This document shows positions 695-40,698 of a DNA stretch of 64,000 bases, one piece after another (the first letter of the stretch is position 1; each line of letters starts with the position of its first letter). Both the position numbers and the translations under genes were made by a program. The notes beneath the pieces were generated by a model, which was given only the letters and a program-made list of their open reading frames with translations, was not told where the DNA came from and did not search any database. Origin of the DNA: Solirubrobacterales bacterium (GTDB taxonomy: Bacteria > Actinomycetota > Thermoleophilia > Solirubrobacterales > 70-9); contig JAICSS010000003.1 of NCBI GenBank assembly GCA_025936755.1, positions 44,272-108,271 of the forward strand, given 5' to 3'.

Positions 695-1429
695 CTAGAA
701 GCCGACCAGCAGCTTGCCGGCGTTGGCGATCAGGCCGGCGCCGATCATCAGCAGGACCGAGGGGACGAGGACCAGGGCGACGACGAGCTGGATCTTCGGC
801 GCGGCGCGGGCGGCGCGCTCCTCGGTCGCGCGGCGGCTGTCCCGGCGCAGCGCGGTCGCCTGGCGGCGGAGCTGGTCCGCCAGCGGCGAGCCGAACCGGC
901 GCGAGCGTTCGATCGCCGCCACCAGCGTCGCCAGCTCGCCGCCCGGCACGCGCCGTCGCAGCGATTCGAGGGCGGCGCCGAGAGGGACGCCGCAGGAGAT
1001 CTCGGCCACGGTCAGGCGCAGCTCCTCGGCCAGCGGCCCCTCCCCCGCCCGCGCCAGCTGCTCGATCCCGGCGGCCGGATCGCGGCCCGAAGCGGCGCTG
1101 ACCGCGAGCAGGTCCAGAGCGTCGGGCAGTGCGGCGATCAGGCGGCGATGGCGCCGGCGCGCCCGGCGCTGGCGGAGGACGTCGGGAGCGAGGAACCCGG
1201 CGAGGGGCAGGCCGAAGGCGACGAGCCAGGCGCTGCGCCCCGGAGCGGCCGGCGCCGCCAGCAGCGCGGTGGCAGTGCCGAGGAGGGCGCCGAGCAGCTT
1301 CCGCGGCAGCAGCGCCGGGACTTGCAGACGCGCCCCAAGGCCCGCGGCGATGCCTCCCAGCGGCAGCTCCCGCGCCGCCGCCGCTCCGAACAGCACCGCG
1401 ACCGCGGCGAGCAGGCCCGCCCCGCTCAC
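695..1429 (-). CDS. tadC: Tad/Flp pilus assembly membrane protein, T2SS-F domain (TadC-like)
   Basis: Polytopic membrane protein with the C-terminal helix IQLVVALVLVPSVLLMIGAGLI typical of TadB/TadC. Start overlaps the stop of the upstream tadB-like gene. Sits in an operon with cpaF. Confidence 0.7.
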   Translation of the reverse strand: MSGAGLLAAVAVLFGAAAARELPLGGIAAGLGARLQVPALLPRKLLGALLGTATALLAAPAAPGRSAWLVAFGLPLAGFLAPDVLRQRRARRRHRRLIAALPDALDLLAVSAASGRDPAAGIEQLARAGEGPLAEELRLTVAEISCGVPLGAALESLRRRVPGGELATLVAAIERSRRFGSPLADQLRRQATALRRDSRRATEERAARAAPKIQLVVALVLVPSVLLMIGAGLIANAGKLLVGF

Positions 1430-2268
1430 TCGACCACCTGGGAGAAGCGGCGGATCGCGAAGAAGCCGGCGACCTGCAGGGCGGCGGCAAGGGCAAGCAG
1501 CACCGCGGCGGCCGGCGAAGCCAGCAGCGTGGCGAGGAATCCGGGCTGCAGCAGCTCGGCGAAGAGGGCGCCGCCGGTGGGCATCGCCACCACCAGGAGG
1601 CCGGTGAAGCGGGCCTGCGCGGTCGCCGAGCGAGCGTCTTCGGCGACCCGCTCGCGCTCCGCGGCCCCGTCGGCGAAGCGGCGCAGGAGGCTGGCGAGGT
1701 CGCCACCGGCGAGGCGCTGGCTGAGTAGCGCGGCGGCGAAGGCGTCGACGCGCTCCGAGCGCATCCGCCGGCGCCAGGCTGCGAGCGCCTCGCCGGTGGC
1801 GGCGCCGAGCTCGAGCTCGCCCGCGAGCCGGGCCAGCTCCCGCGCCGGCGGGCCGTCCAGCGAGGCGACCGCGGCCGCGAGCGAGGCGCGCAGGGAGCGC
1901 CCGGCGCTGAGGGAGTCGGCGATCGCCGTCGCCACTTCCGGCAGCGAGCGCTCGACCGCGCGGCGGTAACGCCGCCGGCGGCTGCCGATCGCCCAGCCGA
2001 CGCCCGCCGGCCCGGCGACCGCCAGCGGCAGCGCCAGCGCCGGGCCGCCGAGGAACCAGCCCCCGGCGATCGCGGCGCCGGCGCCGAGCAGGGCCAGCCG
2101 GCGCCGCTCCAGCGTCGAGGGCGCGTATCCCTCCTCGCCGGCGCGGCGCAACGGCTCCAGCGCGAAGCGGAGCCAGCGCGCCGCCTCCGGGCTCGCCAGC
2201 AGCGCCTCGCGCACCGCCAGCGCGCCCAGCCCGCCGGCGGCCGCCGCGATCAGGACCGGCAGGATCAA
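1426..2268 (-). CDS. tadB: Tad/Flp pilus assembly membrane protein, T2SS-F domain (TadB-like)
   Basis: Membrane protein paralogous in layout to the downstream gene. 4-nt overlap with the cpaF stop. High-GC3 coding frame. Confidence 0.7.
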   Translation of the reverse strand: MILPVLIAAAAGGLGALAVREALLASPEAARWLRFALEPLRRAGEEGYAPSTLERRRLALLGAGAAIAGGWFLGGPALALPLAVAGPAGVGWAIGSRRRRYRRAVERSLPEVATAIADSLSAGRSLRASLAAAVASLDGPPARELARLAGELELGAATGEALAAWRRRMRSERVDAFAAALLSQRLAGGDLASLLRRFADGAAERERVAEDARSATAQARFTGLLVVAMPTGGALFAELLQPGFLATLLASPAAAVLLALAAALQVAGFFAIRRFSQVVE

Positions 2269-3353
2269 GGGGCCTCGGCGATCTCGGTCACCCGGCGCGA
2301 TCCGTCGGCGCCGCGCTCCAGGTGGACGACGAGGTCGATCCCCCGCCGCACCTGCTCGGTCACCGCGGAGTGCGGCAGCCCCACGCCCGCCATCAGGACA
2401 AGGGTCTCCAGCCGGCGGAGGGCGTCGGCGGGAGAGTTGGCGTGGATCGTCGAGAGGGCCCCCTCGTGACCGGTGTTGAGGGCGGTCAGGAGATCGAGCG
2501 CCTCGACTCCCCGCACCTCGCCGATCACGATCCGGTCCGGCCGCATCCGCAGCGCGTTCCGCAGCAGGTCGCGGATCGTCACCTCGCCGCGGCCCTCGAT
2601 TCCGGCTGGCCGGCTCTCGAGGCGGACGACGTGGGGCTGCCGCAGCCGCAGCTCGGCTGCGTCCTCGATCGTCACCACCCGCTCCGCCGGGGCGATGAAG
2701 CCGGAGAGCGCGTTCAGCAGCGTCGTCTTCCCCGAGCCGGTGCCGCCGCTGACGAGGACGCTGCGGCGCCCCGCCACCGCCGCGGCGAGCAGGTCCCGCT
2801 GCGCCGCCGCCAGCGTCCCCAGCGCGACCAGCTCGTCGGGGCCGGGCCGGTCGGCGCCGAAGCGGCGGATCGAGAGCGACGGACCGTCGATCGCCAGCGG
2901 CGGGATCACGACGTTGACCCGGGAGCCGTCGGCGAGGCGGGCGTCGACCATCGGACTCAGCTCGTCGACCCGGCGGCCGAGCGGGGCGAGGATGCGCTCG
3001 ATCGCGTTCCTCAGCTCCTCCTCGCCCTCGAAGGCGACGTCGGTCGCTTCCAGCAGGCCCCGCCGCTCTACGTAGACGCGGTCGGGCCCGTTGACCATCA
3101 CCTCCTCCACCGCAGGGTCGGCGAGCAGCACCTCGAGCGGCCCCAGCCCGACGCTGTCGCGGACGATCCGCTCGACCACCTGTTCGCGCTCGGCCCGCGG
3201 CAGCACCGCGGCGTGCCCCTCGACCACCTCGCGGGCGGTCTCGGCCAGCTCCTCCCCGCCGGGCCCTCCGGCGGCGGCGGCGCGGCGGCGCTCGACGATC
3301 CGCGCCCTCAGCCCCGCCGCCAGCTCGGCGATGTCCCGCTCCCGCGCCGCCAT
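2265..3353 (-). CDS. cpaF: Tad pilus secretion ATPase CpaF/TadA
   Basis: Walker A GGTGSGKTTLLNAL and VVTIEDAAELRL with the GEVRG Asp/His-box region. ATG at 3351-3353 forms an ATGA overlap with the cpaB stop. The upstream 306 codons of the 668-aa ORF are Arg/Pro junk. Confidence 0.9.
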   Translation of the reverse strand: MAARERDIAELAAGLRARIVERRRAAAAGGPGGEELAETAREVVEGHAAVLPRAEREQVVERIVRDSVGLGPLEVLLADPAVEEVMVNGPDRVYVERRGLLEATDVAFEGEEELRNAIERILAPLGRRVDELSPMVDARLADGSRVNVVIPPLAIDGPSLSIRRFGADRPGPDELVALGTLAAAQRDLLAAAVAGRRSVLVSGGTGSGKTTLLNALSGFIAPAERVVTIEDAAELRLRQPHVVRLESRPAGIEGRGEVTIRDLLRNALRMRPDRIVIGEVRGVEALDLLTALNTGHEGALSTIHANSPADALRRLETLVLMAGVGLPHSAVTEQVRRGIDLVVHLERGADGSRRVTEIAEAP

Positions 3354-3997
3354 CAGCGCGGGATCACGGTGACGCTGCGGGCGAAGCTCTGGGCGGCGAT
3401 CAGGCGCAGCGCCTGCGGTCGGGTCAGGCCGAGGGTCGCGGTGGCTTCCCCCTGACCGCCTTCGCCGCCTGGCGTCAGCGCCAGCAGCGGGACCGCCGAC
3501 GCGGCGACGTAGGTGCGGCCGTCGCCGGATCCGCTCGGTTCGGCGGTGACGACGACGTCGACCCTGGAGCCGACCGGCTGGGCGCCGAAGGCGGAGAGGG
3601 CGCCGGCGCCCTCGACGAGGATCTCCACCGGGCGCCGGCCCCTTGCGAGGGCGCCGTCGGCGCGGGGCGGCTGCGCGGTACGCAGAAGGGTGGCGAGCAC
3701 ATAGGAGCCGCGCGGGATCGCGACGGTCGGGGTCAGGCCCACCGCTTCCCGCGGCGAGGCGAGGGCGCCGGGCGGGGCGAAGCGGATCGGCACCCGCCGC
3801 ACCTCCATGTCTTCGGCGGCGACGCGCGGGTCGATTGCCGTTCCAGCCTGCAGCTCGCCGGCGGCGATCAGCACCGGTCGCAGCTCCCCGTAGCCCCTGA
3901 CCACACTGTCTCCATAGCCGTCGGCGATCGCCGCCGCCGCTGCCGCGGCCAGAGTCGCCGCGAGCAGGAAGGCGACGGCGCGGCCGCGCCGGCTCAT
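3353..3997 (-). CDS. cpaB: Flp pilus assembly protein CpaB (SAF/RcpC-type)
   Basis: N-terminal TM segment AVAFLLAATLAAAAAAAI followed by a SAF-like beta region, and positioned directly upstream of cpaF. ATG at 3995-3997 overlaps the kinase stop (ATGA). Confidence 0.7.
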   Translation of the reverse strand: MSRRGRAVAFLLAATLAAAAAAAIADGYGDSVVRGYGELRPVLIAAGELQAGTAIDPRVAAEDMEVRRVPIRFAPPGALASPREAVGLTPTVAIPRGSYVLATLLRTAQPPRADGALARGRRPVEILVEGAGALSAFGAQPVGSRVDVVVTAEPSGSGDGRTYVAASAVPLLALTPGGEGGQGEATATLGLTRPQALRLIAAQSFARSVTVIPR

Positions 3998-4707
3998 CGG
4001 CTCGCCCCCGCCAGCGGCAGCTCGAGACGGGCCTCGGTGCCCTCGGCGGACCGGCGCAGGCGGTAGCTGCCGCCGCACCTCGCCGCCAGCCGCCGCACGA
4101 TCCGCAGGCCATGGCCGTGACGGTCGCGCCCGGCGGTCCGGATCGCGCGCAGCATCCGGCGGCGCCGGGGACCGGCCCCGCCGCAGCCGCCGTCTCTGAC
4201 GACGAGATGGAGGCGATCGCCTGCTTCGCCGATCTCGACGACCACGGCATCGCGCCCGTGCACCAGCGCATTGCTGATCAAGTTGTCCAGCGCCTGCCCA
4301 AGCTCCGCCGGCGGGGTTTGGAGAACCGGTTCGCCCGCTCTCCACTCGAGGCTGACGGAGCGGTCGAGGGCCTCGGCGGGACGGCGCCACCGCTCCATCG
4401 CCGACTCGACCGCCGGCCTCAGCGATACCGGCCCGGCCGGCGCTTCCAGCGGCCCGCCGTTGATCTCCCGGTCGAGCCTCTCGACGGCGGCGACGGCCAT
4501 CAGCAGGCATGCCCCCGCGGGCTCGCTCTCCGATCCGTCCGCCGGCAGCGACAGCGCCAAGCCCTGCAGCGGCCGGCGAAGCTCGTGCATCGCCTCGTTC
4601 AGCGAGGACCGCCGCCGCCCCTCCCGCAGCGCGGTGATCCCAGTCGCCATCGCAAAGGAAGCGGCAACCGGCAGCCCGCCGGCCAGCTCCGACAGCTCCA
4701 AGGGCAT
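3994..4707 (-). CDS. Minimal sensor histidine kinase (one TM segment, HisKA plus HATPase_c)
   Basis: H-box MHELRRPLQGL, N-box LDNLISNALVHG, G-box HGHGLRIVRRLA. Only about 30 residues, containing one hydrophobic segment, precede the H-box. Confidence 0.8.
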   Translation of the reverse strand: MPLELSELAGGLPVAASFAMATGITALREGRRRSSLNEAMHELRRPLQGLALSLPADGSESEPAGACLLMAVAAVERLDREINGGPLEAPAGPVSLRPAVESAMERWRRPAEALDRSVSLEWRAGEPVLQTPPAELGQALDNLISNALVHGRDAVVVEIGEAGDRLHLVVRDGGCGGAGPRRRRMLRAIRTAGRDRHGHGLRIVRRLAARCGGSYRLRRSAEGTEARLELPLAGASR

Positions 4708-5074: not shown

Positions 5075-5674
5075 TTGCCACAGTCCCGCACGTCACCAGA
5101 GGGCATTACGCAGCAGCTTGCGAAGGCCCTTGCCCACCCCCTACGGGTTCGCATCCTCAGCTCCCTGCACAAAGGGATCTCGAGTCCGAACCAGCTCGCC
5201 CAGGAGCTCGGCGAGCCGCTGGGCAACGTCAGCTACCACGTCAAAACCCTGCTCGAGTACGACTGCGTCGAACTGGTCAAAACCGAGCCGCGGCGCGGCG
5301 CCGTCGAGCATTTCTACCGCGCCACCGACCGCGCCTTCCTCAGCGACTCGGACTGGGGCAAGATCCCGGCCTCCGCCCGCAAAGGCATCTCCGGCTCGAT
5401 CCTCGAGTCGATCGGCCAGAGCGCGACCGAGGCGATGGCCGAGGGGACGATCGAGGGCCGCAAGGACTCCCACCTCTCCGACACGCCGCTCCTGCTCGAC
5501 GAGCAGGGCTGGAAGGACCTCAACAAGGTCCTCGCCGACGCGGTGAAGAAGTCCGCCGAGATCCAGAAGGAAGCCGCCACGCGCCTCGACAGCAAGGCCG
5601 ACGGCATCCCGACCAAGCTGGCGATCATGCACTTCGAGGTCCCGGCCGCGAAGAAGGCCAAAGCGAAGAAGTAG
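5075..5674 (+). CDS. ArsR-like winged-helix regulator with a conserved C-terminal extension (paralogue family)
   Basis: LAHPLRVRILSSL...NVSYHVKTLLEYDCVELV wHTH. C-terminal DEQGWKDL...IPTKLAIMHFEVP matches 27452-28699 and 41074-41691. TTG start with GGAGG 6 nt upstream. Confidence 0.75.
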   Translation: MPQSRTSPEGITQQLAKALAHPLRVRILSSLHKGISSPNQLAQELGEPLGNVSYHVKTLLEYDCVELVKTEPRRGAVEHFYRATDRAFLSDSDWGKIPASARKGISGSILESIGQSATEAMAEGTIEGRKDSHLSDTPLLLDEQGWKDLNKVLADAVKKSAEIQKEAATRLDSKADGIPTKLAIMHFEVPAAKKAKAKK

Positions 5675-5725: not shown

Positions 5726-6095
5726 CTAGCCGTCGACCAGGCGGTAGCCGATGCCCCAGCAGTTGACAACGAAGCGGTTGCCCTCGGGGTCGAGTTTGAG
5801 GCGCAGGCGGCTGGCGTGGGAGTCGAGGGTGCGGGTCTTGGAAGGGCCGCGGTAGGCCCAGACCGCATCCAGGAGCTCTTCCTTCGTATAGACCCGGAGG
5901 GGATCCGAGGCGAGGACGCGGAGGAGGGCGAACTCCTTCTTCGCGAGGTGGACCTCGCGATCGCCCACCGTGACCCGGCGGCGCAGCGGGTCGATCACGA
6001 GATCGCCGACGCGGGTGGGCCCTTCGTTGGGTTCCGTGCGGCGCCTGAGGACGGCGCCGATGCGGGCGCGCAGCTCGCCGTAGACGAACGGCTTG
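5726..6095 (-). pseudogene. OmpR-family response regulator, 3' fragment (end of receiver plus winged-helix DNA-binding domain), cut off by the integrated element
   Basis: Begins ...KPFVYGELRARIGAVLRRR, then a Trans_reg_C domain (LAKKEFALLRVL, RTLDSHASRLRLKL, VNCWGIGYRLV). It has no receiver domain of its own. The TTG start in the ORF track lies in element DNA. Confidence 0.85.
6087..6095. repeat. attL crossover core
   Basis: AACGGCTTG, identical to 11787-11795. The bases immediately flanking each copy differ. Confidence 0.8.
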
Positions 6096-6098
6096 CCT

Positions 6099-6149
6099 TT
6101 CAATCATTTGTTTGGCCCCATCCCAATCAGCGACCCAGAGCCAAAATAA
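6099..6149 (+). repeat. Copy 1 of a 51-nt repeat that would encode the alternative recombinase C-terminus after excision
   Basis: In frame with the recombinase across a reconstructed attP: ...NGL PFNHLFGPIPISDPEPK stop. About 80% identical to 7082-7132. Confidence 0.7.
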
Positions 6150-6225
6150 GCTGCTCGTAGCTCCTGCCTCGCACAATGCGGAAGTCCCCGGTCGCTTGGG
6201 CGAGTCGCAACGGTAGCCTCGCCGA

Positions 6226-7068
6226 GTGGCTAGCGACCGCTTTGAATTCCCCGAGACGTTCGATTCCGAACTTGAGATCGGCGACCTGCCCGGCAACAAG
6301 GCGTTCTTCGGCCGCGATGTTCTCGGCGGACTGGTCGGCGGTATCGACGACTACATGCGCCAGCGCCAGGAGCGGTGGAGGCGGCGAGGGTATCGGTCGA
6401 TGGGGCCGGGCCTCCTTGGCACGGCTATGTGGATGGACGATCCCGAGTTCATCGACAAGCTGACCGAACTCTCAGGAGCCTGCGTGGTCGTCACGAAGCA
6501 ACCGAGATCGAAGCGGGACCTTGAGAAGTTCGAGCGCCTGGCGGCACTTAACGAGCAAACCCCAGGGCTTCGCGTCGCAGCGTTCCCCGCCCTCAGCGAC
6601 CTTGCACCCAAGGTAGACGGCAAGCCCCGACTCGTCGGACCATACGACCAAATCGGCGAGGATTCGATACCTACCATCCGCGCGCTCGGATTCCGGCGCA
6701 AGGGGAACCCGCTCGTTCCGATCATGCACGCCAAGCTGGCGATCCTCGGCGAGTTCTGGTGGTACGACGAAGGGGCTCTCGGCGAGGTTGGCGACTTCTA
6801 CGGCTTCACTCCGGCGCGGCTGTGGGTCTCTTCAGCGAACTTCACCCGCCAGTCCCGGCGAAGCCTTGAGTTCGGCTACTGGACCGAGAATGAGGGACTC
6901 CGCGAAGCGGCTTATAGATTCGTTCTGCAGGCGATTCGGTTTTCGGAGTCGCTGGATTCCGCTGCGGACGCGCTTGATCCTGAGTTTGTACCGATCGAGT
7001 TCGATGACGCCGCCATGCTCGAAGCGATCGCCGACATGGAGTTCGAGGACGAGGACTTGGACGAGTAA
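6226..7068 (+). CDS. PLD-superfamily (single HKD-like) putative nuclease with an acidic C-terminal tail
   Basis: IMHAKLAILG (HxK) followed, after an insert, by LWVSSANFT (GSxN-like). Tail is EFEDEDLDE. Only one HKD-like motif, so a dimer would be needed as in Nuc/BfiI. Confidence 0.55.
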   Translation: MASDRFEFPETFDSELEIGDLPGNKAFFGRDVLGGLVGGIDDYMRQRQERWRRRGYRSMGPGLLGTAMWMDDPEFIDKLTELSGACVVVTKQPRSKRDLEKFERLAALNEQTPGLRVAAFPALSDLAPKVDGKPRLVGPYDQIGEDSIPTIRALGFRRKGNPLVPIMHAKLAILGEFWWYDEGALGEVGDFYGFTPARLWVSSANFTRQSRRSLEFGYWTENEGLREAAYRFVLQAIRFSESLDSAADALDPEFVPIEFDDAAMLEAIADMEFEDEDLDE

Positions 7069-7081
7069 TGCGCCCTCGTCC

Positions 7082-7132
7082 TTCTGGCAATTGTTTGGAC
7101 CGATCCCAATCAGCAACGCAGAGCCGAAATAG
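7082..7132 (+). repeat. Copy 2 of the recombinase-tail repeat (relic)
   Basis: Would encode FWQLFGPIPISNAEPK stop. From TTG onward it differs from copy 1 at 6 positions: 3 synonymous, 1 stop-to-stop, 2 non-synonymous. Confidence 0.65.
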
Positions 7133-7248
7133 GCCGCTTTAGGCAGATTCCCCGAATCTGCCTACACCTCCCTTCCTTCCTTTACTCACCCATCAAGCAA
7201 ACCGAGGCCCCTCCGGTGGGGGGGGAAGTTCTCCGCTTCCTCCACGCT

Positions 7249-7283
7249 GTTGGTCCCATGCCGTGACCTAAAGGCAGAAAGAC
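7249..7283. repeat. Left copy of a 35-bp inverted repeat
   Basis: GTTGGTCCCATGCCGTGACCTAAAGGCAGAAAGAC equals the reverse complement of 9683-9717 at 34 of 35 positions. Confidence 0.85.
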
Positions 7284-7302
7284 CTCCGGTCCCTCGTAAA
7301 CC

Positions 7303-7432
7303 CCGAAGCCGCCTCGCTTCCCTGGGCCCCCGCGCTCCTTGCATCTGACCCCGGTCGATCACGAATAGTGAGCGGGTGGGGTCAGATGCAAGGAGCGCCC
7401 TCATTTGGCCCAGGGAAGCGAGGCGGCTTCGG
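7303..7432. repeat. 130-nt long imperfect palindrome (21-bp plus 26-bp perfect stems)
   Basis: Left arm 7303-7352 pairs with right arm 7378-7432. Inner stem GCGCTCCTTGCATCTGACCCC / GGGGTCAGATGCAAGGAGCGC. Outer stem CCGAAGCCGCCTCGCTTCCCTGGGCC / GGCCCAGGGAAGCGAGGCGGCTTCGG. Confidence 0.85.
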
Positions 7433-7519
7433 ACGCTGCAATCGCAGCCCTGTTCGCAGCCTCCCGCGCTTCTTGAAATGCAACCCCGAAAAGTGGCCGA
7501 GCTCCAATAGGCTGCGCCG

Positions 7520-7723
7520 ATGCCCGAGGACGCGAAACGCCAGGCTGCCGCCGAAGCTGTGAAGGCAGTTCAGAAGGAGTTCCTGCGGCAGACGTCCGAA
7601 GCTCGGGCGACTCGCCGCAAGGTCTTCAAAGAAGCTAGGGAGGCGGGGTTGAACCTGCGGGAGATTGGCGAGTTGGCCGGTATCCATCACACGACGGTCG
7701 GCGAAATCATTCGGGGAGGATGA
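7520..7723 (+). CDS. Small helix-turn-helix protein (candidate regulator or recombination directionality factor)
   Basis: 67 aa. C-terminal LNLREIGELAGIHHTTVGEIIRGG resembles a Hin/resolvase-type HTH. Lies inside the element. Confidence 0.55.
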   Translation: MPEDAKRQAAAEAVKAVQKEFLRQTSEARATRRKVFKEAREAGLNLREIGELAGIHHTTVGEIIRGG

Positions 7724-7837
7724 TTTTGGAGGGTTAACCCTCCAAAGCTGCTACGGTAGCGGCGACCAAGAGAAGCGGCCCCCGGCGGTGCGGAAACACC
7801 AACCGGGAGCCTGACCACAAGGAGATGCATCCTCCTC

Positions 7838-8191
7838 ATGGCTAGAGACAACGATATGGGCGGCGGGTCGCTGGTGCCTCTTGACCTTCCCCCGCAGCAC
7901 ATCCCGATCCTGCGCGAACGTCTGACGACCTGGCTGGACGGCGTTCGGGAGGATCTGGAAGCCGTCGACGAGGCACAGGGACTCGATCAGGCCTGGCAGG
8001 AAGCGCGGGCATTTGAGCGGTTGCTAACCGCTCTTGCGACGGGGAAGATTTGCCTTCCCGACGAAGCGGCCAGGACGGCGCTCGAGGTCTCGGCAGCTGC
8101 GCATGACAAGGAGAGCGACTACGCGGACGTAGCTGCAACTCACGATGCGCTTCATGCCCTGCTTGACGCATTGGGGGGTGCCCGCGCTTGA
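7838..8191 (+). CDS. Hypothetical all-helical protein (element cargo)
   Basis: 117-aa ORF. Its stop overlaps the next start. No recognisable motif. Confidence 0.45.
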   Translation: MARDNDMGGGSLVPLDLPPQHIPILRERLTTWLDGVREDLEAVDEAQGLDQAWQEARAFERLLTALATGKICLPDEAARTALEVSAAAHDKESDYADVAATHDALHALLDALGGARA

Positions 8192-8436
8192 TCGCCACCG
8201 ACTTGCGGCTGCAACGGGTCGTGCTGGCACTTGTTCTCCGAGAACATCCGGCAGTTCTTTCGCTGCCGGCGCTGGCCGGCCAGGTTCTCGCGGACCCTCG
8301 CGCCCTCACCGGCAAGGTGGCTCTTGCCCGCGCCCTCCGCGACCTGGACAACGAGGGCTTGGTGTTCAGTGACGGCTCGCATATGCAGCCGAGCCGACCG
8401 GCTATCTACGTCAAGCGTCTGCTGGGGGCCTGCTGA
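8188..8436 (+). CDS. Hypothetical small protein, possibly winged-helix
   Basis: 82 aa. The pattern LQRVVLALVLREHP...ALRDLDNEGLVFSDG resembles a wHTH. Overlapping start and stop codons on both sides. Confidence 0.45.
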   Translation: MIATDLRLQRVVLALVLREHPAVLSLPALAGQVLADPRALTGKVALARALRDLDNEGLVFSDGSHMQPSRPAIYVKRLLGAC

Positions 8437-8924
8437 TGTTGGTTCCGGGGCGCTTCAGCAGCGCCGCGATCAACATCGGCGAGGGCGAGTTGGAGGTCCG
8501 TCTGAGCGACGGCGGCAATTGGCGAGTTCAGGTGCGCTCCACCGATGGGGAAGACTGGCGGCTGCTCTGCCGGGGCCACATTGACGGCACCATCTTTGAG
8601 ACTGCCGGGGCTGACGATGAAGCGCCGATCATGGTCGGCCCGCTACGGGTCGATCCAGCGGCCCGCTGCGTCGAAGTTCACGGCGCTCCGGTGTGCTTGA
8701 CGGCGCGGGAGTTTGAGTTGGTGGCGCTACTTGCTACGGACCCCGGCCGCGTCTTCACCAAGGACGAGTTGTTGCGGGAGGTCTGGAAGCACAGGGCTGG
8801 CGGCAGCAGTCGCACCCTTGACTCACATGCCAGCCGCGTCCGCAACAAACTCCGCAAAGCCGGGGCCGACGGCTTCATAGTCAACTGCTGGCGCGTCGGC
8901 TACATGCTTTGCGGAGATCGCTAG
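8436..8924 (+). CDS. Receiver-less OmpR/PhoB-type winged-helix DNA-binding protein with an unknown 60-aa N-terminal domain
   Basis: LTAREFELVALLA, RTLDSHASRVRNKL and FIVNCWRVGYML form a Trans_reg_C domain. No Asp-pocket receiver motifs upstream of it. Confidence 0.8.
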   Translation: MLVPGRFSSAAINIGEGELEVRLSDGGNWRVQVRSTDGEDWRLLCRGHIDGTIFETAGADDEAPIMVGPLRVDPAARCVEVHGAPVCLTAREFELVALLATDPGRVFTKDELLREVWKHRAGGSSRTLDSHASRVRNKLRKAGADGFIVNCWRVGYMLCGDR

Positions 8925-8967
8925 CTATTTGCATAGCAATTTGATCTGAGGGTGGACCGTTTCGGTC

Positions 8968-9441
8968 TTGAGCATCGTCTTAGGGGTCGATGCTCAAAGG
9001 ATTGAACGGATGCCCGACGGATCGAACGAAATCTATGCGGACGTTGCCGCCCAGCGCAGGCAATTTGCCGTACTCCTGGCGCAGCTACGCGCCGCCGAGC
9101 CGCGTTTCGCGGAAGCGTCGATCCTGCTGCCCAATGAGTATGGCGAGTGGCATGCGGCTGTCTACCTCCTGATTGGTTGCGGGCCGGTCTGGGACAGACT
9201 TGGCCCCCCGATAGTCGCGCAGTGTTCGCTTTCGCCTGTCTTTGAAGAGATGGAAAGCGCTCGGCGTCGCTGGACGAAAGACCAGCGCGCAGCGATGGAA
9301 TGGGCGCTGCACTTCTGGAGGCCGGACAAATACGCGGCCAGCTTTCCGGAGGCGTTCGGGGCGTTCATGTTCACCCGGTGGATCGTCGCCTTGCATCTAC
9401 AGAAGGGTCTCGTTCCGAGGATTCGCATAGATCGGGGCTGA
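8968..9441 (+). CDS. Hypothetical protein (element cargo)
   Basis: 157-aa ORF with coding-like composition and no recognisable motif. Confidence 0.45.
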   Translation: MSIVLGVDAQRIERMPDGSNEIYADVAAQRRQFAVLLAQLRAAEPRFAEASILLPNEYGEWHAAVYLLIGCGPVWDRLGPPIVAQCSLSPVFEEMESARRRWTKDQRAAMEWALHFWRPDKYAASFPEAFGAFMFTRWIVALHLQKGLVPRIRIDRG

Positions 9442-9682
9442 ACCGTGTATGCCGTGCGCTCCCGCCGACCCACCCAGCAAATAGCGCTGCGCCGCTCGGC
9501 AGTCAAGGGCGCGATGCGCCCGACCCCTTTAGGGGTTGACGGCCGAGCGGCGCGGCGCTTCGCTGGCAGGTAGGTCGGCGGCGGTGAAAAAAGGGTCAGC
9601 AGGTTCACTTTGGCCGGGGTGCTAGGCGAACGCCATTAGCGCAATCGGAACCATCACGACGAAAGTAACGATCTTGATCGTT

Positions 9683-9717
9683 GTCTTTCTGCCTTTAGGT
9701 CACGGCATGTGACCAAC
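9683..9717. repeat. Right copy of the 35-bp inverted repeat
   Basis: GTCTTTCTGCCTTTAGGTCACGGCATGTGACCAAC. Contains the internal palindrome GGTCAC-N5-GTGACC. Confidence 0.85.
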
Positions 9718-9719
9718 AG

Positions 9720-9882
9720 TGTCGGAACCAATAGAGAATGTCACCACTTGTTTTCGGTATGTGTAGTGAGAAAAAAATGTGTAGAAAGTTAGGGTGTGTG
9801 TGATTAGTCCAGAAACTTATTCCGCAAAGTGATCTACTTCCCTTTGTATGAAAAGGGAGAACCAACAACAAGTAGGTGAAGT
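9720..9882 (+). promoter_or_regulatory. AT-rich regulatory island upstream of the RHH-like ORF and the recombinase
   Basis: GC is far below the window average. Direct repeat ATGTGTAG at 9759-9766 and 9777-9784, followed by a GTGTGTGTG run. Confidence 0.3.
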
Positions 9883-10179
9883 ATGGAAAGCAGGGAGAAA
9901 CAACAACAAGGAGGAGATAAGCCACTGGTCGCATCCTTCAAGGACTGCGACTCATCAGCCTCGCCGCCACATACCGTCCGGCTGGAGATCATTCCCACGC
10001 ACAGGCAATACATGCAGCTCTGCAATGACCTACGCGAGCTGCGCCGACGCGGGGCCGAGACCAACACGGTCGCCATCATCGACGCGGTTCACGCCGCCAC
10101 TTCGCATAAGATCGAGGCTAGAACTTATAAACGGGCCGAGGGGCGTATGCGCGCCCCCCGGCCCCGCAACAGGAGGTAA
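9883..10179 (+). CDS. Putative ribbon-helix-helix-like small protein upstream of the recombinase
   Basis: TVRLEIIPTHRQYMQLCNDLRELRRRGAETNTVAIIDAVHAA fits a strand-helix-helix pattern. Its stop lies within the recombinase RBS (AGGAGGTAA). Start codon is uncertain. Confidence 0.35.
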   Translation: MESREKQQQGGDKPLVASFKDCDSSASPPHTVRLEIIPTHRQYMQLCNDLRELRRRGAETNTVAIIDAVHAATSHKIEARTYKRAEGRMRAPRPRNRR

Positions 10180-10184
10180 GTCCT

Positions 10185-11804
10185 GTGCCTGATAACCGTA
10201 GCGACCTCGCCATTCTCTACGCGGCGAAGTCAACGAAAGACGAGAAGGGAAGCATCCCCACGCAGCTAGGGGACACGGAGATTGCTGCGCTCGCGGAAGG
10301 CCGCGCTATTGCCGAGCGCTATGCCGACGAGAACGAGAGCGCCTATCACGGCAACCGTGGCCCCAAACTTGAAGCTGCGCTAGATCACGCGGAGCGGATC
10401 GGAGCCGAGCTTTGGGTCCAACACTCCGACCGGCTCGCCCGCGGCGACGGCGTGAAGGCCCGCCATCTTGTCCAGCTTGTCTTTGAGGCCAAGGCTCGCG
10501 GTATCCGCCTGCGCTCGGTCGAAGACGATGCCTCGCTCGAAAACGTGGTGATGGCGGCGGTGATGGGCGAGCGCAACACCGAGGATTCCCGCCGAAAGGC
10601 GGCGGCGGTGAAAGCCGGTATGGAGCGCAAGCGCCAGCGTGGCGAATACATCGGCCACCGCCCCTACGGCTACAAGTGGGAGCGTGATGAGAAGGATGAT
10701 CGCCAGATCGTTCCCGACCCCGTCCAAGCCCCGCTCATCCGGCGCATCTTCAAGGAATACCTTGCGGGTGAATCTCAGAAGGCAATCGCCCGCAATCTCA
10801 CTCGGGACAACGTGCAGACCCCGCGCGGGGGAACTCGGTGGTATCCCGGAACCGTCCGTCAAATCCTGGCCCGCCCGCTCTATGCGGGCTGGATTCCCGA
10901 CGGGAAAGACGGAGTCCTAGAGGGCAACCATGAGCCGCTAATCACCCGCGAGGAATGGGAACAAACGGAAGACTTGCGAAAGGCAAAAGCTCGCGGTCCT
11001 GGTCGTGGTCGGCCTGTGGCGGGGCGGCACCTTTTCCGCAAGGGCTTCCTTCGTTGCGGGGCCTGCGGCGGCGCTCTAATTCCTCGGACGATCCCCAATC
11101 GAGCAAATCCGCCCCGTGAAGTCTATGAATGCTTCACCCGGCATTGCGACCTTGACGGGTGTTCGCAGGAGCCGATCCTGCGCGTCGAAATCGACGGCGC
11201 AGTCCTCGGCTACTTTGAGCAAGTCGGGCTCGACTTGGACGCTACGCGGGACGAACTGGCGGCAGCGATGGACAGAAAGATCGAAGAGACCCGAGCCCTT
11301 CTGAGGGCGGCCCAAAAGGACGCGGCGACCGCTGCCGATCGACTCGCCCGCGTCAAGAGCGACTACCTGAGCGGCGAGTTGACCGCTGCCGAGTGGCGGG
11401 AGTTGCGAGCGGAGCTTGAGCCCAGCACCGTCGCCGCCTCTGCAGAGGTGGAGCGCCTAGCCGAGCAACTTCAGACTCACGAAAGCGACGGCGCCGTTGA
11501 GGTCGCGGAGCGCGAGGTATATGACTTGCTTCGGCAGATTCGGGAGACCGTGACCGGCTCGGCGGCGGATACCGCAGGAGCCCAGGCGGTGAGCGCGACG
11601 CTTCTTCGACTCTTCGACCACTTCACGTACCACGTAGGGATTCCCGAGCGGGCAAATGTCGAGTTGGTCGAAGCTCATAGCTGGATCGAGCCGACGATCA
11701 AGCCCGACCCGATTCACGGCCGCGACGATGAAGATTTCCCCCTCCCGTCCCGCGAACCGCTTGGCCAAGCCGCAAACAAAGGGCACAACGGCTTGGTGAG
11801 GTAA
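10185..11804 (+). CDS. Large serine recombinase (integrase)
   Basis: Resolvase catalytic domain (AILYAAKSTKDEKGSIPTQ, HSDRLARG), recombinase domain, zinc ribbon CGACGG...C...C, and a coiled coil. GTG start with AGGAGG. The last 3 codons and the stop lie in host DNA beyond the att core. Confidence 0.92.
   Translation: MPDNRSDLAILYAAKSTKDEKGSIPTQLGDTEIAALAEGRAIAERYADENESAYHGNRGPKLEAALDHAERIGAELWVQHSDRLARGDGVKARHLVQLVFEAKARGIRLRSVEDDASLENVVMAAVMGERNTEDSRRKAAAVKAGMERKRQRGEYIGHRPYGYKWERDEKDDRQIVPDPVQAPLIRRIFKEYLAGESQKAIARNLTRDNVQTPRGGTRWYPGTVRQILARPLYAGWIPDGKDGVLEGNHEPLITREEWEQTEDLRKAKARGPGRGRPVAGRHLFRKGFLRCGACGGALIPRTIPNRANPPREVYECFTRHCDLDGCSQEPILRVEIDGAVLGYFEQVGLDLDATRDELAAAMDRKIEETRALLRAAQKDAATAADRLARVKSDYLSGELTAAEWRELRAELEPSTVAASAEVERLAEQLQTHESDGAVEVAEREVYDLLRQIRETVTGSAADTAGAQAVSATLLRLFDHFTYHVGIPERANVELVEAHSWIEPTIKPDPIHGRDDEDFPLPSREPLGQAANKGHNGLVR
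11787..11795. repeat. attR crossover core
   Basis: AACGGCTTG. It lies inside both the recombinase 3' end and the response-regulator K-P codons on the opposite strand. Confidence 0.8.
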
Positions 11805-12139
11805 TCGTCGGCGCCGGAGTCGAGGCCGCGGACCTTGTCGGTGCCGCCGCCGCGGCCGGTGAGGACGATCACCGGCAGCCGCGGATCGAAGCGGGAGTCG
11901 ACGCCGTCGGCGTCGCGGATCTCGCGCAGGACGTCGAGGCCGGAGGCGTCCGGCAGCGAGAGGTCCAGCAGCAACAGGTCGGGATGGTTGTACCGGCACA
12001 GCCGCAGCGCGTCGGAGGCGCTGGGCGCGGGCATGACGCCGAAGCGATCGGCGGCGAGGTGCTCGCAGAGCAGGTCGAGGGTGACGTGGTCGTCCTCGCA
12101 GACGACGAGGCTGGCTATCTCTTCTCGTTGGGGGAGCAT
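11787..12139 (-). pseudogene. OmpR-family response regulator, 5' fragment (complete receiver domain), interrupted by the element
   Basis: VVCEDD, LLLLDLSLPD, VIVLTGR and ADDYLTKP give every receiver signature. After KP the frame runs into element DNA (LCPLFAAW...). Confidence 0.85.
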
Positions 12140-24299: not shown

Positions 24300-24475
24300 T
24301 TGATTTGGCTGGGCCGGGGACAGGTCTCCTGGCTTCCGGGATCAGGGAGGACGCGCCTTCCCGGGGACGAGGTGTCGCCCCCAGTGGCTGACGCGAAAGC
24401 GCCCGCGAACTCCTCCACCCGGTCACAGTGGCGGGACCACGCCGGACTTGCACCGGACTTCCCTTGACCACCGAC
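24300..24475 (-). promoter_or_regulatory. Cobalamin (B12) riboswitch
   Basis: Minus strand reads GGTGGTCAAGGGAAGTCCGGTGCAAGTCCGGCGTGGTCCCGCCACTGTGACC ... GAAGCCAGGAGACCTGTC (B12 box). It lies directly upstream of the first DUF4430 gene. Confidence 0.8.
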
Positions 24476-24551
24476 CGATATGTACGCGGCGAGTCTACCG
24501 TCGCCGCGGGTTTTGGCGCCGGGGCTCCCGGCGCCGCTCTGACCGCGGCCG

Positions 24552-40178: not shown

Positions 40179-40425
40179 AACTAGGAATCTAGCATAGCTA
40201 GAACACGTTGTTACAGATTTTGTAGCGAGGCTATGGAAGGGGGCTCCATTCCCTGCCGAAGACGGGGGCGACCAGGAGCCGACCCCCGGTTGGAAGGCAC
40301 CGGCGCCGGGCGAGCCTGCAGCCCGGGCGACCGCTACCCCTACCGACCCCGGTCACCCTGTCTTACGAGCCCCTCGAGGAACCCCTGCCCGAAGTCTGCT
40401 GCTGAAAGGAACCCTGAACCTGGAG

Positions 40426-40498
40426 TACCGCTACGGGGATTCGAACCCCGGTTTCCGGACTGAGAATCCGGCGTCCTAGTCCCCTAGACGATAGCGGC
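40426..40498 (-). tRNA. tRNA-Glu (anticodon CUC)
   Basis: Minus strand reads GCCGCTATCGTCTAGGGGACTAGGACGCCGGATTCTCAGTCCGGAAACCGGGGTTCGAATCCCCGTAGCGGTA. Cloverleaf folds by hand with a G1-U72 wobble. CCA is not encoded. Confidence 0.85.
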
Positions 40499-40614: not shown

Positions 40615-40698
40615 GCGGCTGTGGCGGAACTGGTAGACGCGCACGGTTCAGGTCCGTGTGGGCGAGAGCCCGTGGAGGTTCGACTCCTCTCAGCCGCA
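40615..40698 (+). tRNA. tRNA-Leu (anticodon CAG)
   Basis: GCGGCTG acceptor paired with CAGCCGC, anticodon loop TTCAGGT, long variable arm, T-loop GGTTCGACTCC. Confidence 0.9.

Follow-up and report, generated by a model that had tools for sequence, protein, structure and literature searches.

When a host gene is cut in two by an element that carries its own recombinase, and could be rebuilt by loss of that element, is the arrangement a regulated gene switch or the landing site of a mobile element? The question is raised by a 64-kb stretch of DNA (‘the window’; all coordinates are window positions) from an uncultured member of the Solirubrobacterales, probably derived from a metagenome-assembled genome (MAG), in which an insert of 5,700 bp separates the halves of a response-regulator gene. 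An earlier account of this DNA (‘the sequence-only reading’) described a serine-recombinase element that splits the regulator at its Lys-Pro (K-P) codons and would restore it precisely on excision, and likened it to switches such as skin/sigK. The first part of that account is borne out by our reconstruction. In our judgement, however, the insert is very probably a 5.7-kb mosaic integrative element, recently acquired, whose large serine recombinase (LSR) has its attB site inside a conserved regulator gene, and not a domesticated switch.

A response-regulator gene split at a lysine codon

The 9-mer AACGGCTTG, which had been proposed as a core covering the K-P codons at both junctions, occurs exactly twice in the window, at 6087–6095 and 11787–11795 (shuffled sequence gave a mean of 0.31 matches, and two copies were reached in 3 of 100 shuffles). 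Deleting the 5,700 bp between the copies fuses minus-strand segments 12139–11796 and 6095–5726 into a single, uninterrupted open reading frame (ORF) of 237 codons, as had been predicted, which reads ...GADDYLTKPFVYGEL... at the junction. Pfam searches of the joined ORF identified Response_reg (PF00072; residues 12–127, model positions 2–110 of 111) and Trans_reg_C (PF00486; residues 161–234), and the motifs CEDD, LLLLDLSLPD and TKP are directly readable in it. The split host gene is a response regulator of the OmpR/PhoB family, and both its receiver domain and its winged helix are complete, in agreement with the sequence-only reading. Its N-terminal half, with the receiver domain, lies at 11796–12139 (minus strand), beside the attR copy of the core (11787–11795, located by repeat search and junction comparison). 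The C-terminal half, colinear with intact orthologues from K116-P117 to the stop codon and carrying the OmpR-type winged helix, occupies 5726–6095 (minus strand) and includes the attL copy (6087–6095), in which the crossover would fall at TT on this strand, the complement of the AA of the Lys codon. The insert has a GC content of 62%, versus 71–73% in the flanks, and a GC content at third codon positions of ∼0.7–0.8, versus 0.92–0.93 in host genes.

Uninterrupted versions of the gene are common. The joined protein matches more than 100 proteins of 237 amino acids without interruption, at 83–96% identity and 100% coverage, and those with a named source come from Solirubrobacterales MAGs; an intact orthologue of about this length, alignable from end to end, is what the earlier account had advised looking for. 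Sequence searches returned neither relatives that always carry two separate genes nor a joined ORF that fails to align throughout its length with OmpR-family regulators. Among the relative loci compared (designated by L-numbers), uninterrupted L001 aligns with the window minus its insert straight through the junction, in a single high-scoring segment pair of 2,010 bp at 91% identity, and the intact orthologues at L001 and L002 share 96% amino-acid identity with the joined regulator. Precise excision, as would be required of a gene switch, would yield an ORF colinear with its intact orthologues.

The regulator shows a dN/dS of 0.14 between the window and L001. It carries one change at conserved columns, against 0–5 in intact orthologues, a count that is informative for the window only, the reference set being biased for distant hosts. 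A lineage-specific substitution, R214L (window ∼5795–5797), is located just after the recognition-helix motif SHASRLR, at a column at least 97% conserved in the 119 intact orthologues used for the conservation check; it could be a first sign of relaxed constraint or ordinary variation.

At the right-hand end of the insert, the ORF at 10185–11804 (plus strand; 539 amino acids, the last two codons and the stop being host DNA) has the domains expected of a complete LSR. These are a catalytic Resolvase domain (PF00239; E 1.5e-13, residues 9–154), a Recombinase domain (PF07508; E 1.6e-21) and a zinc ribbon (Zn_ribbon_recom, PF13408; 27.8 bits, cut-off 25.3). In an alignment with 26 relatives S16, D82, R83 and R86 (the arginines of DRLAR included) are invariant, as are the zinc-ribbon cysteines C294, C316 and C326, while C291 is at least 90% conserved. 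The catalytic motif YAAKS (10227–10232, residues 15–16) has a lysine, K15, where serine recombinases usually have arginine. The dN/dS of the LSR is 0.13–0.17, so that it is kept functional by purifying selection. Its identity to LSRs from the phage and plasmid collections searched reaches only ∼25%. SprA (YokA) is its sole sequence match among solved structures (E 2e-6), and its best NCBIfam match is to the XisF type of the fdxN element (E 5e-15; 55 bits versus a family cut-off of 375). Equivalence with XisF or Ccr was considered and rejected, with NCBIfam scores far below the cut-offs.

The attB site reconstructed from the flanks is GACGATTACCTCACCAAGCCGTTCGTCTACGGC, and the attP site, which lies inside the recombinase gene at its 3' end, is ...CAAACAAAGGGCACAACGGCTTGCCTTTCAATCATTTGTTTG... 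(in the sense of the regulator, CAAACAAATGATTGAAAGGC-AA-GCCGTTGTGCCCTTTGTTTG). These strings, like the coordinates and motifs above, match those of the sequence-only reading throughout. When centred on the AA of the Lys codon, the 20-bp arms of attP agree at 14 of 20 positions (reached in 2 of 2,000 shuffles), a stronger dyad than any other in the region; the symmetry of attB is weak (9 of 20). The left end of the element (6096–6155), which supplies the P arm of attP and part of this dyad, is conserved in L003 and L086. Over all junctions compared, the AA of the Lys codon are the only constant bases, and in L055 the core shrinks to AAG. Serine integrases exchange attP and attB at a 2-bp overlap, with no bases gained or lost, and require a directionality factor for excision. 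Because the AA is constant at all junctions and centres the attP dyad, it is the likely crossover dinucleotide, within the codon for K116, a conserved lysine of the receiver domain.

In the mechanism that we propose, the LSR would integrate the element at attB within the regulator, with exchange most likely at the AA of the K116 codon. Recombination between attL and attR, probably with the help of a directionality factor (for which orfG, described below, is a candidate), would rebuild the regulator to the base, since serine recombination is conservative; this is the exact restoration that had been claimed. The recombinase itself would also be altered by the event. As integrated it ends ...NGLVR at 539 amino acids; in the excised circle it would reach 554 amino acids and end ...NGLPFNHLFGPIPISDPEPK, making the C-terminal tail (11787–11804 plus 6096–6150) dependent on the state of the element and 15 residues longer in the excised form.

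Movement between hosts and choice of target

The host nearest to that of the window, represented by L001 and L002 (82–97% nucleotide identity over host genes), has an empty site. L003, in which host genes are 77–90% identical, is occupied, and the LSR there is 96.4% identical to that of the window. Between the window and L003 the synonymous divergence (dS) is 0.44 for the regulator and 0.11 for the LSR; between the window and L086 the values are 0.60 and 0.32. Because dS is lower for the LSR than for the regulator, the recombinase module has moved between lineages after these had diverged. Stable vertical association, the only mark of a domesticated switch that can be tested here, was not observed. 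Recent horizontal acquisition also explains the undamaged halves of the regulator without recourse to reversibility.

Two further assemblies, GCA_025927755.1 and GCA_025924595.1, represent the same strain at 99.98–99.99% identity, with the element integrated. Contig breaks in these MAGs were considered as evidence of excision and rejected as assembly effects: L090 starts at window position 7360, inside a hairpin, and L091 starts with a 61-nt inverted duplication. In L091 the receiver half is also broken by a stop codon (DVLR-stop-IRD, at ∼4240 in GCA_025924595.1), ∼55 bp from the contig end, which could reflect faulty assembly or a genuine nonsense mutation.

A search at E ≤ 1e-10 gathered 430 relatives of the LSR, and all those with a source name are from Solirubrobacterales. 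LSRs of 97, 90, 89, 70, 68, 60 and 52% identity abut the same orthologous receiver half (same-site loci L003, L086, L006/L007, L008, L087, L004, L095, L089 and L015), which in each locus is cut at ...DDY(L/V/I)xK(P); both regulator halves are visible in L003, whose element is ∼4.9 kb long, and in L086. In L055, L035, L044 and, in the opposite orientation, L034, LSRs of 40–43% identity interrupt paralogues of the regulator, again at K-P; the two halves in L055 are undamaged, and their junctions have only AAG in common. Every N-terminal half that we saw is intact across the receiver domain. Taken together, these junctions point to an LSR clade, hitherto undescribed, that down to 40% identity follows a conserved Lys codon across both orthologues and paralogues of the regulator.

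Other lineages of LSR appear to have converged on the same gene, which is linked to the Tad-like operon described below. In L020 (3419–3592; LSR 49% identical) the orthologous regulator, confirmed as such by the adjacent DUF192 gene, is cut after codon 54, between RYNHPD and LLLLD, so that the cut adjoins the phospho-acceptor motif LLLLD. In L039 (6119–6236; LSR 40% identical, opposite orientation) it is cut near codon 205; the LSR ORF runs in frame into ...HASRLRRSLDPEG..., the last ∼30 codons of the regulator, and here the adjoining ArsR and kinase genes establish the orthology. Sister LSRs of 47–50% identity cut a gene for an ECF-type sigma factor inside region 4 (L017, L023 and L025), and fused ORF calls suggest that other relatives target genes of DprA, AMP-binding and MFS type.

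The truncated sigma-factor genes lie on the minus strands of L017 (7531–8115), L023 (11530–12120) and L025 (4172–4738). They are cut after ...GYS(R/Q)TK, again following a Thr-Lys codon pair.

Some of the larger same-site relatives carry genes of conjugative appearance: a TrwB/TraG coupling protein in L089, an SLT transglycosylase and DUF3560 in L087, and ParB, ArdC and SSB in L095. The family probably behaves as mobile elements akin to integrative and conjugative elements (ICEs) or integrative and mobilizable elements (IMEs), of which the window copy would be a minimal, non-autonomous member.

Cargo, neighbouring genes and the state of the regulator

The ORFs of the insert all lie on the plus strand. 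The first, orfA (6226–7068; 280 amino acids), is followed at 7075–7138 by a degenerate repeat of the element's left end, 64 nt long, in direct orientation and 78% identical to 6092–6155. The elements of L003 and L086 have no orfA and begin at the equivalent of ∼7088, in this inner copy. The repeat at 7075–7138 marks an older left boundary and the orfA module is an addition; its placement suggests gain or loss by recombination between the two 64-nt copies. A Pfam search with orfA itself gave no match. Residues H168-x-K170 and S203-x-N205-x-T207 are invariant in its 34 homologues, 9 of which have a weak PLDc_2 match, and NucT of Helicobacter pylori matches at E 0.65; orfA is a probable single-HKD protein of the PLD superfamily (Nuc-like) and forms an accessory module.

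Between orfA and orfB lies a near-perfect hairpin of 130 nt (7303–7432; DNA fold −71.7 kcal/mol, z = −13.8) that comprises inverted repeats I2 and I3 and is a candidate origin of transfer (oriT) or terminator; this intergenic region can be aligned in L003, L023, L086 and L094. A longer-range inverted repeat (37–40 nt; left arm 7244–7283, right arm 9683–9722, 95% complementary over 40 nt) brackets the orfB–orfF cargo and has inside it the operator-like palindrome GGTCAC-N5-GTGACC; the right arm is in a stretch of 48% GC upstream of orfG. The pair is kept in three elements, those of the window, L003 (6887–6923, 9507–9543) and L023 (6752–6788, 9504–9530), the last of these although its LSR is only 48% identical. 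It is a candidate operator, module boundary or inversion site.

Within the bracketed cargo, orfB (7520–7723; 67 amino acids) has a weak HTH match (HTH_3, E 0.002) and homologues in L003, L031, L092 and L094. No function was assigned to orfC (7838–8191; 117 amino acids, coding-type GC pattern) or orfD (8188–8436; 82 amino acids, coding pattern), both of which recur in the L092/L094 module, or to orfF (8968–9441; 157 amino acids, 143 in other annotations), which is 86% identical in L003 and present also in L023, L025, L092 and L094. The product of orfE (8436–8924; 162 amino acids) is a receiver-less OmpR-type winged helix (Trans_reg_C, E 1e-20); compared with the DNA-binding half of the split regulator it shows 47% identity (BLASTP against the joined regulator, E 5e-29). 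We considered the idea that orfE is a captured half of the target or a decoy, and rejected such a target-specific role: its receiver-less winged-helix family is large (a search at E ≤ 1e-8 gathers 547 proteins, of which the top 120 are 64–93% identical), the orfB–orfF module occurs also beside tyrosine integrases, and the same-site elements of L003 and L086 are without orfE.

The last gene before the recombinase is orfG (9883–10179; 98 amino acids), which ends 5 bp before the LSR start and is a candidate directionality factor or regulator. Searches with tblastn matched it in 14 other loci, all of which bear an LSR and have the orfG match upstream of it. It matched no significant Pfam family, and single-sequence structure models (pLDDT 54.6 for orfG, 34.5 for orfA) did not reach a quality that would permit a fold search. 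Functions for orfA, orfC, orfD, orfF and orfG were also sought with PADLOC, PHROGs and NCBIfam, without result.

The cargo core 7084–9589 (orfB–orfF) is 83–89% identical in nucleotide sequence to L092 (7081–9150) and L094 (6671–9158), where it adjoins tyrosine integrases at unrelated sites; 8938–11794 is common to the window and L003. The element is thus a mosaic, in which one cargo core is combined with interchangeable integrase modules. Searches of 6096–11795 against Pfam, PHROG and NCBIfam found no phage structural, replication, relaxase, type IV coupling protein (T4CP) or transfer gene, and the conjugation module of an ICE (relaxase, coupling protein and mating-pore genes) was not found in this interval. 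Of IME features, the integrase is present and the hairpin at 7303–7432 is the sole oriT candidate; no relaxase was found.

Domain searches of the window confirmed that a Tad-like operon headed by a kinase lies near the split gene. It comprises a histidine kinase (HATPase_c), SAF/CpaB-like, T2SSE (CpaF-like) and two T2SSF (TadB/C-like) genes (695–4707, minus strand), and between the kinase and the regulator, as placed by domain search and synteny, is a gene for an ArsR-type HTH_20 regulator (5075–5674, plus strand). L001 and L002 share this neighbourhood; there the order is PfkB, DUF192, regulator, ArsR-type HTH_20, histidine kinase, SAF/CpaB-like, T2SSE, two T2SSF and MraZ. Elsewhere the window contains a cobalamin riboswitch (24302–24487, minus strand; 76.5 bits), tRNA-Glu(CTC) (40425–40498, minus strand), tRNA-Leu(CAG) (40615–40698, plus strand) and tRNA-Thr(TGT) (61492–61564, minus strand).

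As integrated, the ORF of the N-terminal half continues to 11714, and its 141-amino-acid product is annotated in NCBI assemblies. Integration splits the regulator into this receiver-only ORF, which presumably can still be expressed from its native start, and a DNA-binding half without native promoter or start. Because the DNA-binding half has no conserved start or promoter, integration most likely leaves the regulator inactive in transcriptional control. Re-expression of the C-terminal half from a TTG start within the element (MKGKPF...) was considered and rejected: the TTG directly follows a TGA stop, its equivalent in L086 is TCG, and no leftward promoter-like site was seen.

Mobile element or switch

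Several observations weigh against the integrative element as we have described it. K15 of the LSR replaces the usual arginine of the catalytic pocket, though it is invariant in all 26 aligned relatives; the central dinucleotide is deduced from comparison and symmetry; and orfG can only be guessed to be the directionality factor. The exact joined protein is absent from ∼15 billion catalogued proteins, the attP junction is absent from IMG/VR, and the assemblies searched yielded neither an excision product nor an attB allele belonging to this strain. Finally, Pfam, PHROG and NCBIfam reveal no relaxase, replication or transfer gene anywhere in the 5.7 kb.

The alternative that survives best, while still unlikely, is compatible with a mobile integrative element and adds a selective reason for its choice of site: the regulator would be the selected target, and elements would gain by inactivating it, for example if Tad pili were shut off against superinfecting phages or rival elements. 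In its favour, the orthologous gene is hit at three places, codons ∼54 (L020), 116 and ∼205 (L039), each by a different LSR lineage, a convergence that selection of this kind would explain, and LSRs of 40–43% identity interrupt paralogues at K-P. The gene is, however, also among the most conserved sequences on offer (83–96% amino-acid identity in many MAGs), and conservation alone makes a good attB; moreover, sister LSRs hit the ECF-type sigma factor and probably also genes of DprA, AMP-binding and MFS type.

Somewhat less likely again is a regulated switch of the skin/sigK, SPbeta/spsM or comK-prophage type, in which the LSR and a recombination directionality factor, triggered by host or element in particular circumstances, would excise the element and so toggle Tad-pilus regulation. 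Much of the anatomy would suit such a device: the regulator could be restored precisely; both halves are undamaged in the window, L003, L086 and L055; the element is small and without phage or transfer genes; the conserved small orfG directly upstream of the LSR recalls sprB/sprA; an operator-like palindrome precedes orfG; and the regulator is tightly syntenic with the kinase–Tad operon. The distribution of the element argues otherwise. Occupancy is patchy, the closest host having an empty site, and the element is younger than the divergence of its hosts (dS 0.11 versus 0.44). Its mosaic cargo is common to tyrosine-integrase elements inserted elsewhere, neither an attB nor an attP product appeared in any assembly searched, and a recent insertion accounts for the intact halves without need of reversibility. 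The step from intact halves to a skin/sigK-type switch, taken in the sequence-only reading, is not supported, in view of the empty site in the nearest host, the low divergence of the LSR, the mosaic cargo and the conjugative-looking relatives. Regulated excision, with an effect on Tad pili, is possible but unsupported.

A broader version of the same idea, which we rate no higher, would join the clade specialised on Lys-Pro with the other lineages and make the regulator a selected, reversible control point, at which small non-phage elements would toggle Tad-pilus regulation, whether to the benefit of the host, as in phase variation, or to keep out rival phages and elements.

We think it improbable that the insertion is a dead end, with an element incompetent for excision and a regulator that is a young pseudogene. 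The lack of any excision product in assemblies or IMG/VR, the lineage-specific R214L at a column conserved to at least 97%, and the receiver-half stop codon of L091 (though near a contig end) would fit this view. Opposed to it are a complete LSR under purifying selection, intact att arms, a regulator dN/dS of 0.14, and 96% identity of the element to a copy in another species, implying recent mobility. An assembly chimera, or a naturally two-gene arrangement, can be set aside, as only the probable metagenomic origin of the source speaks for it, while the same attR junction is present at 99.98–99.99% identity in two independent NCBI MAG assemblies, the same architecture recurs in more than 8 other assemblies, and intact orthologues are the rule.

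A recently acquired, mosaic integrative element thus remains our preferred reading. Its description provides a clean set of attB, attP, attL and attR sites for a previously undescribed clade of serine integrases from an uncultured order of soil actinobacteria. The placement of the predicted crossover on a codon conserved across response regulators offers a testable case of a recombinase family that follows a protein motif over paralogues. The element is likewise a candidate for knocking out a Tad-pilus regulator reversibly, and the new pairs of att sites and integrases are of possible use in genome engineering. In the literature searched we found no report of the K-P codons of a response regulator as an integrase target, or of integrative elements in Solirubrobacterales.

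Comparison with known systems

SPbeta is a functional phage of 134 kb whose excision is tied to sporulation and stress; sprB lies upstream of sprA in it, and SprB is the directionality factor of SprA. As in the SPbeta/spsM system of Bacillus subtilis, an LSR element here splits a host ORF that conservative excision would rebuild, and the recombinase gene is immediately preceded by a small gene. Unlike SPbeta, the element of the window is 5.7 kb long and without phage genes, and its LSR is only distantly related. PMC13228054, itself a precedent for active lysogeny, treats the disruption of spsM by SPbeta and cites the literature on regulatory switches. The skin element in sigK, with its recombinase SpoIVCA, is similar in being a cryptic element with a serine recombinase inside a regulator gene. 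Among the intervening elements of sporulation genes, the position at which a given gene is interrupted, and the recombinase responsible, differ from taxon to taxon, a diversity paralleled by L020, L039 and the clade of the window. Skin is domesticated and leaves the chromosome only in the mother cell, which is terminally differentiated, unlike the element described here, which is patchy, mobile between species and younger than the divergence of its hosts.

The comK prophage of Listeria monocytogenes (A118/phi10403S type) is likewise an intragenic serine-integrase insertion in a regulator gene. It is a full prophage, and its excision has been demonstrated experimentally inside macrophages; the window element is no full prophage. 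Intragenic insertion with reversible restoration of comK is presented as active lysogeny in PMC7397523, and PMC6597384 provides a further precedent for active lysogeny. The fdxN element of Anabaena resembles that of the window in that a serine recombinase, XisF, excises an intervening element, and XisF is the type of the best NCBIfam match of the LSR. XisF acts in heterocyst development and requires XisH and XisI.

ICEs and IMEs with serine integrases (Tn5397 with TndX, streptococcal ICEs, and SCCmec with Ccr) share with the window element site-specific integration by an LSR, often in conserved genes, and a mosaic cargo, and relatives of its LSR adjoin genes for T4CP, SLT, ParB, ArdC and SSB. 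The window copy differs in having no recognisable relaxase or T4CP, with the hairpin as its sole oriT candidate. On present evidence no new mechanism is revealed by this element, and its mechanism is a known one, like that of SPbeta/spsM, skin/sigK, comK and fdxN.

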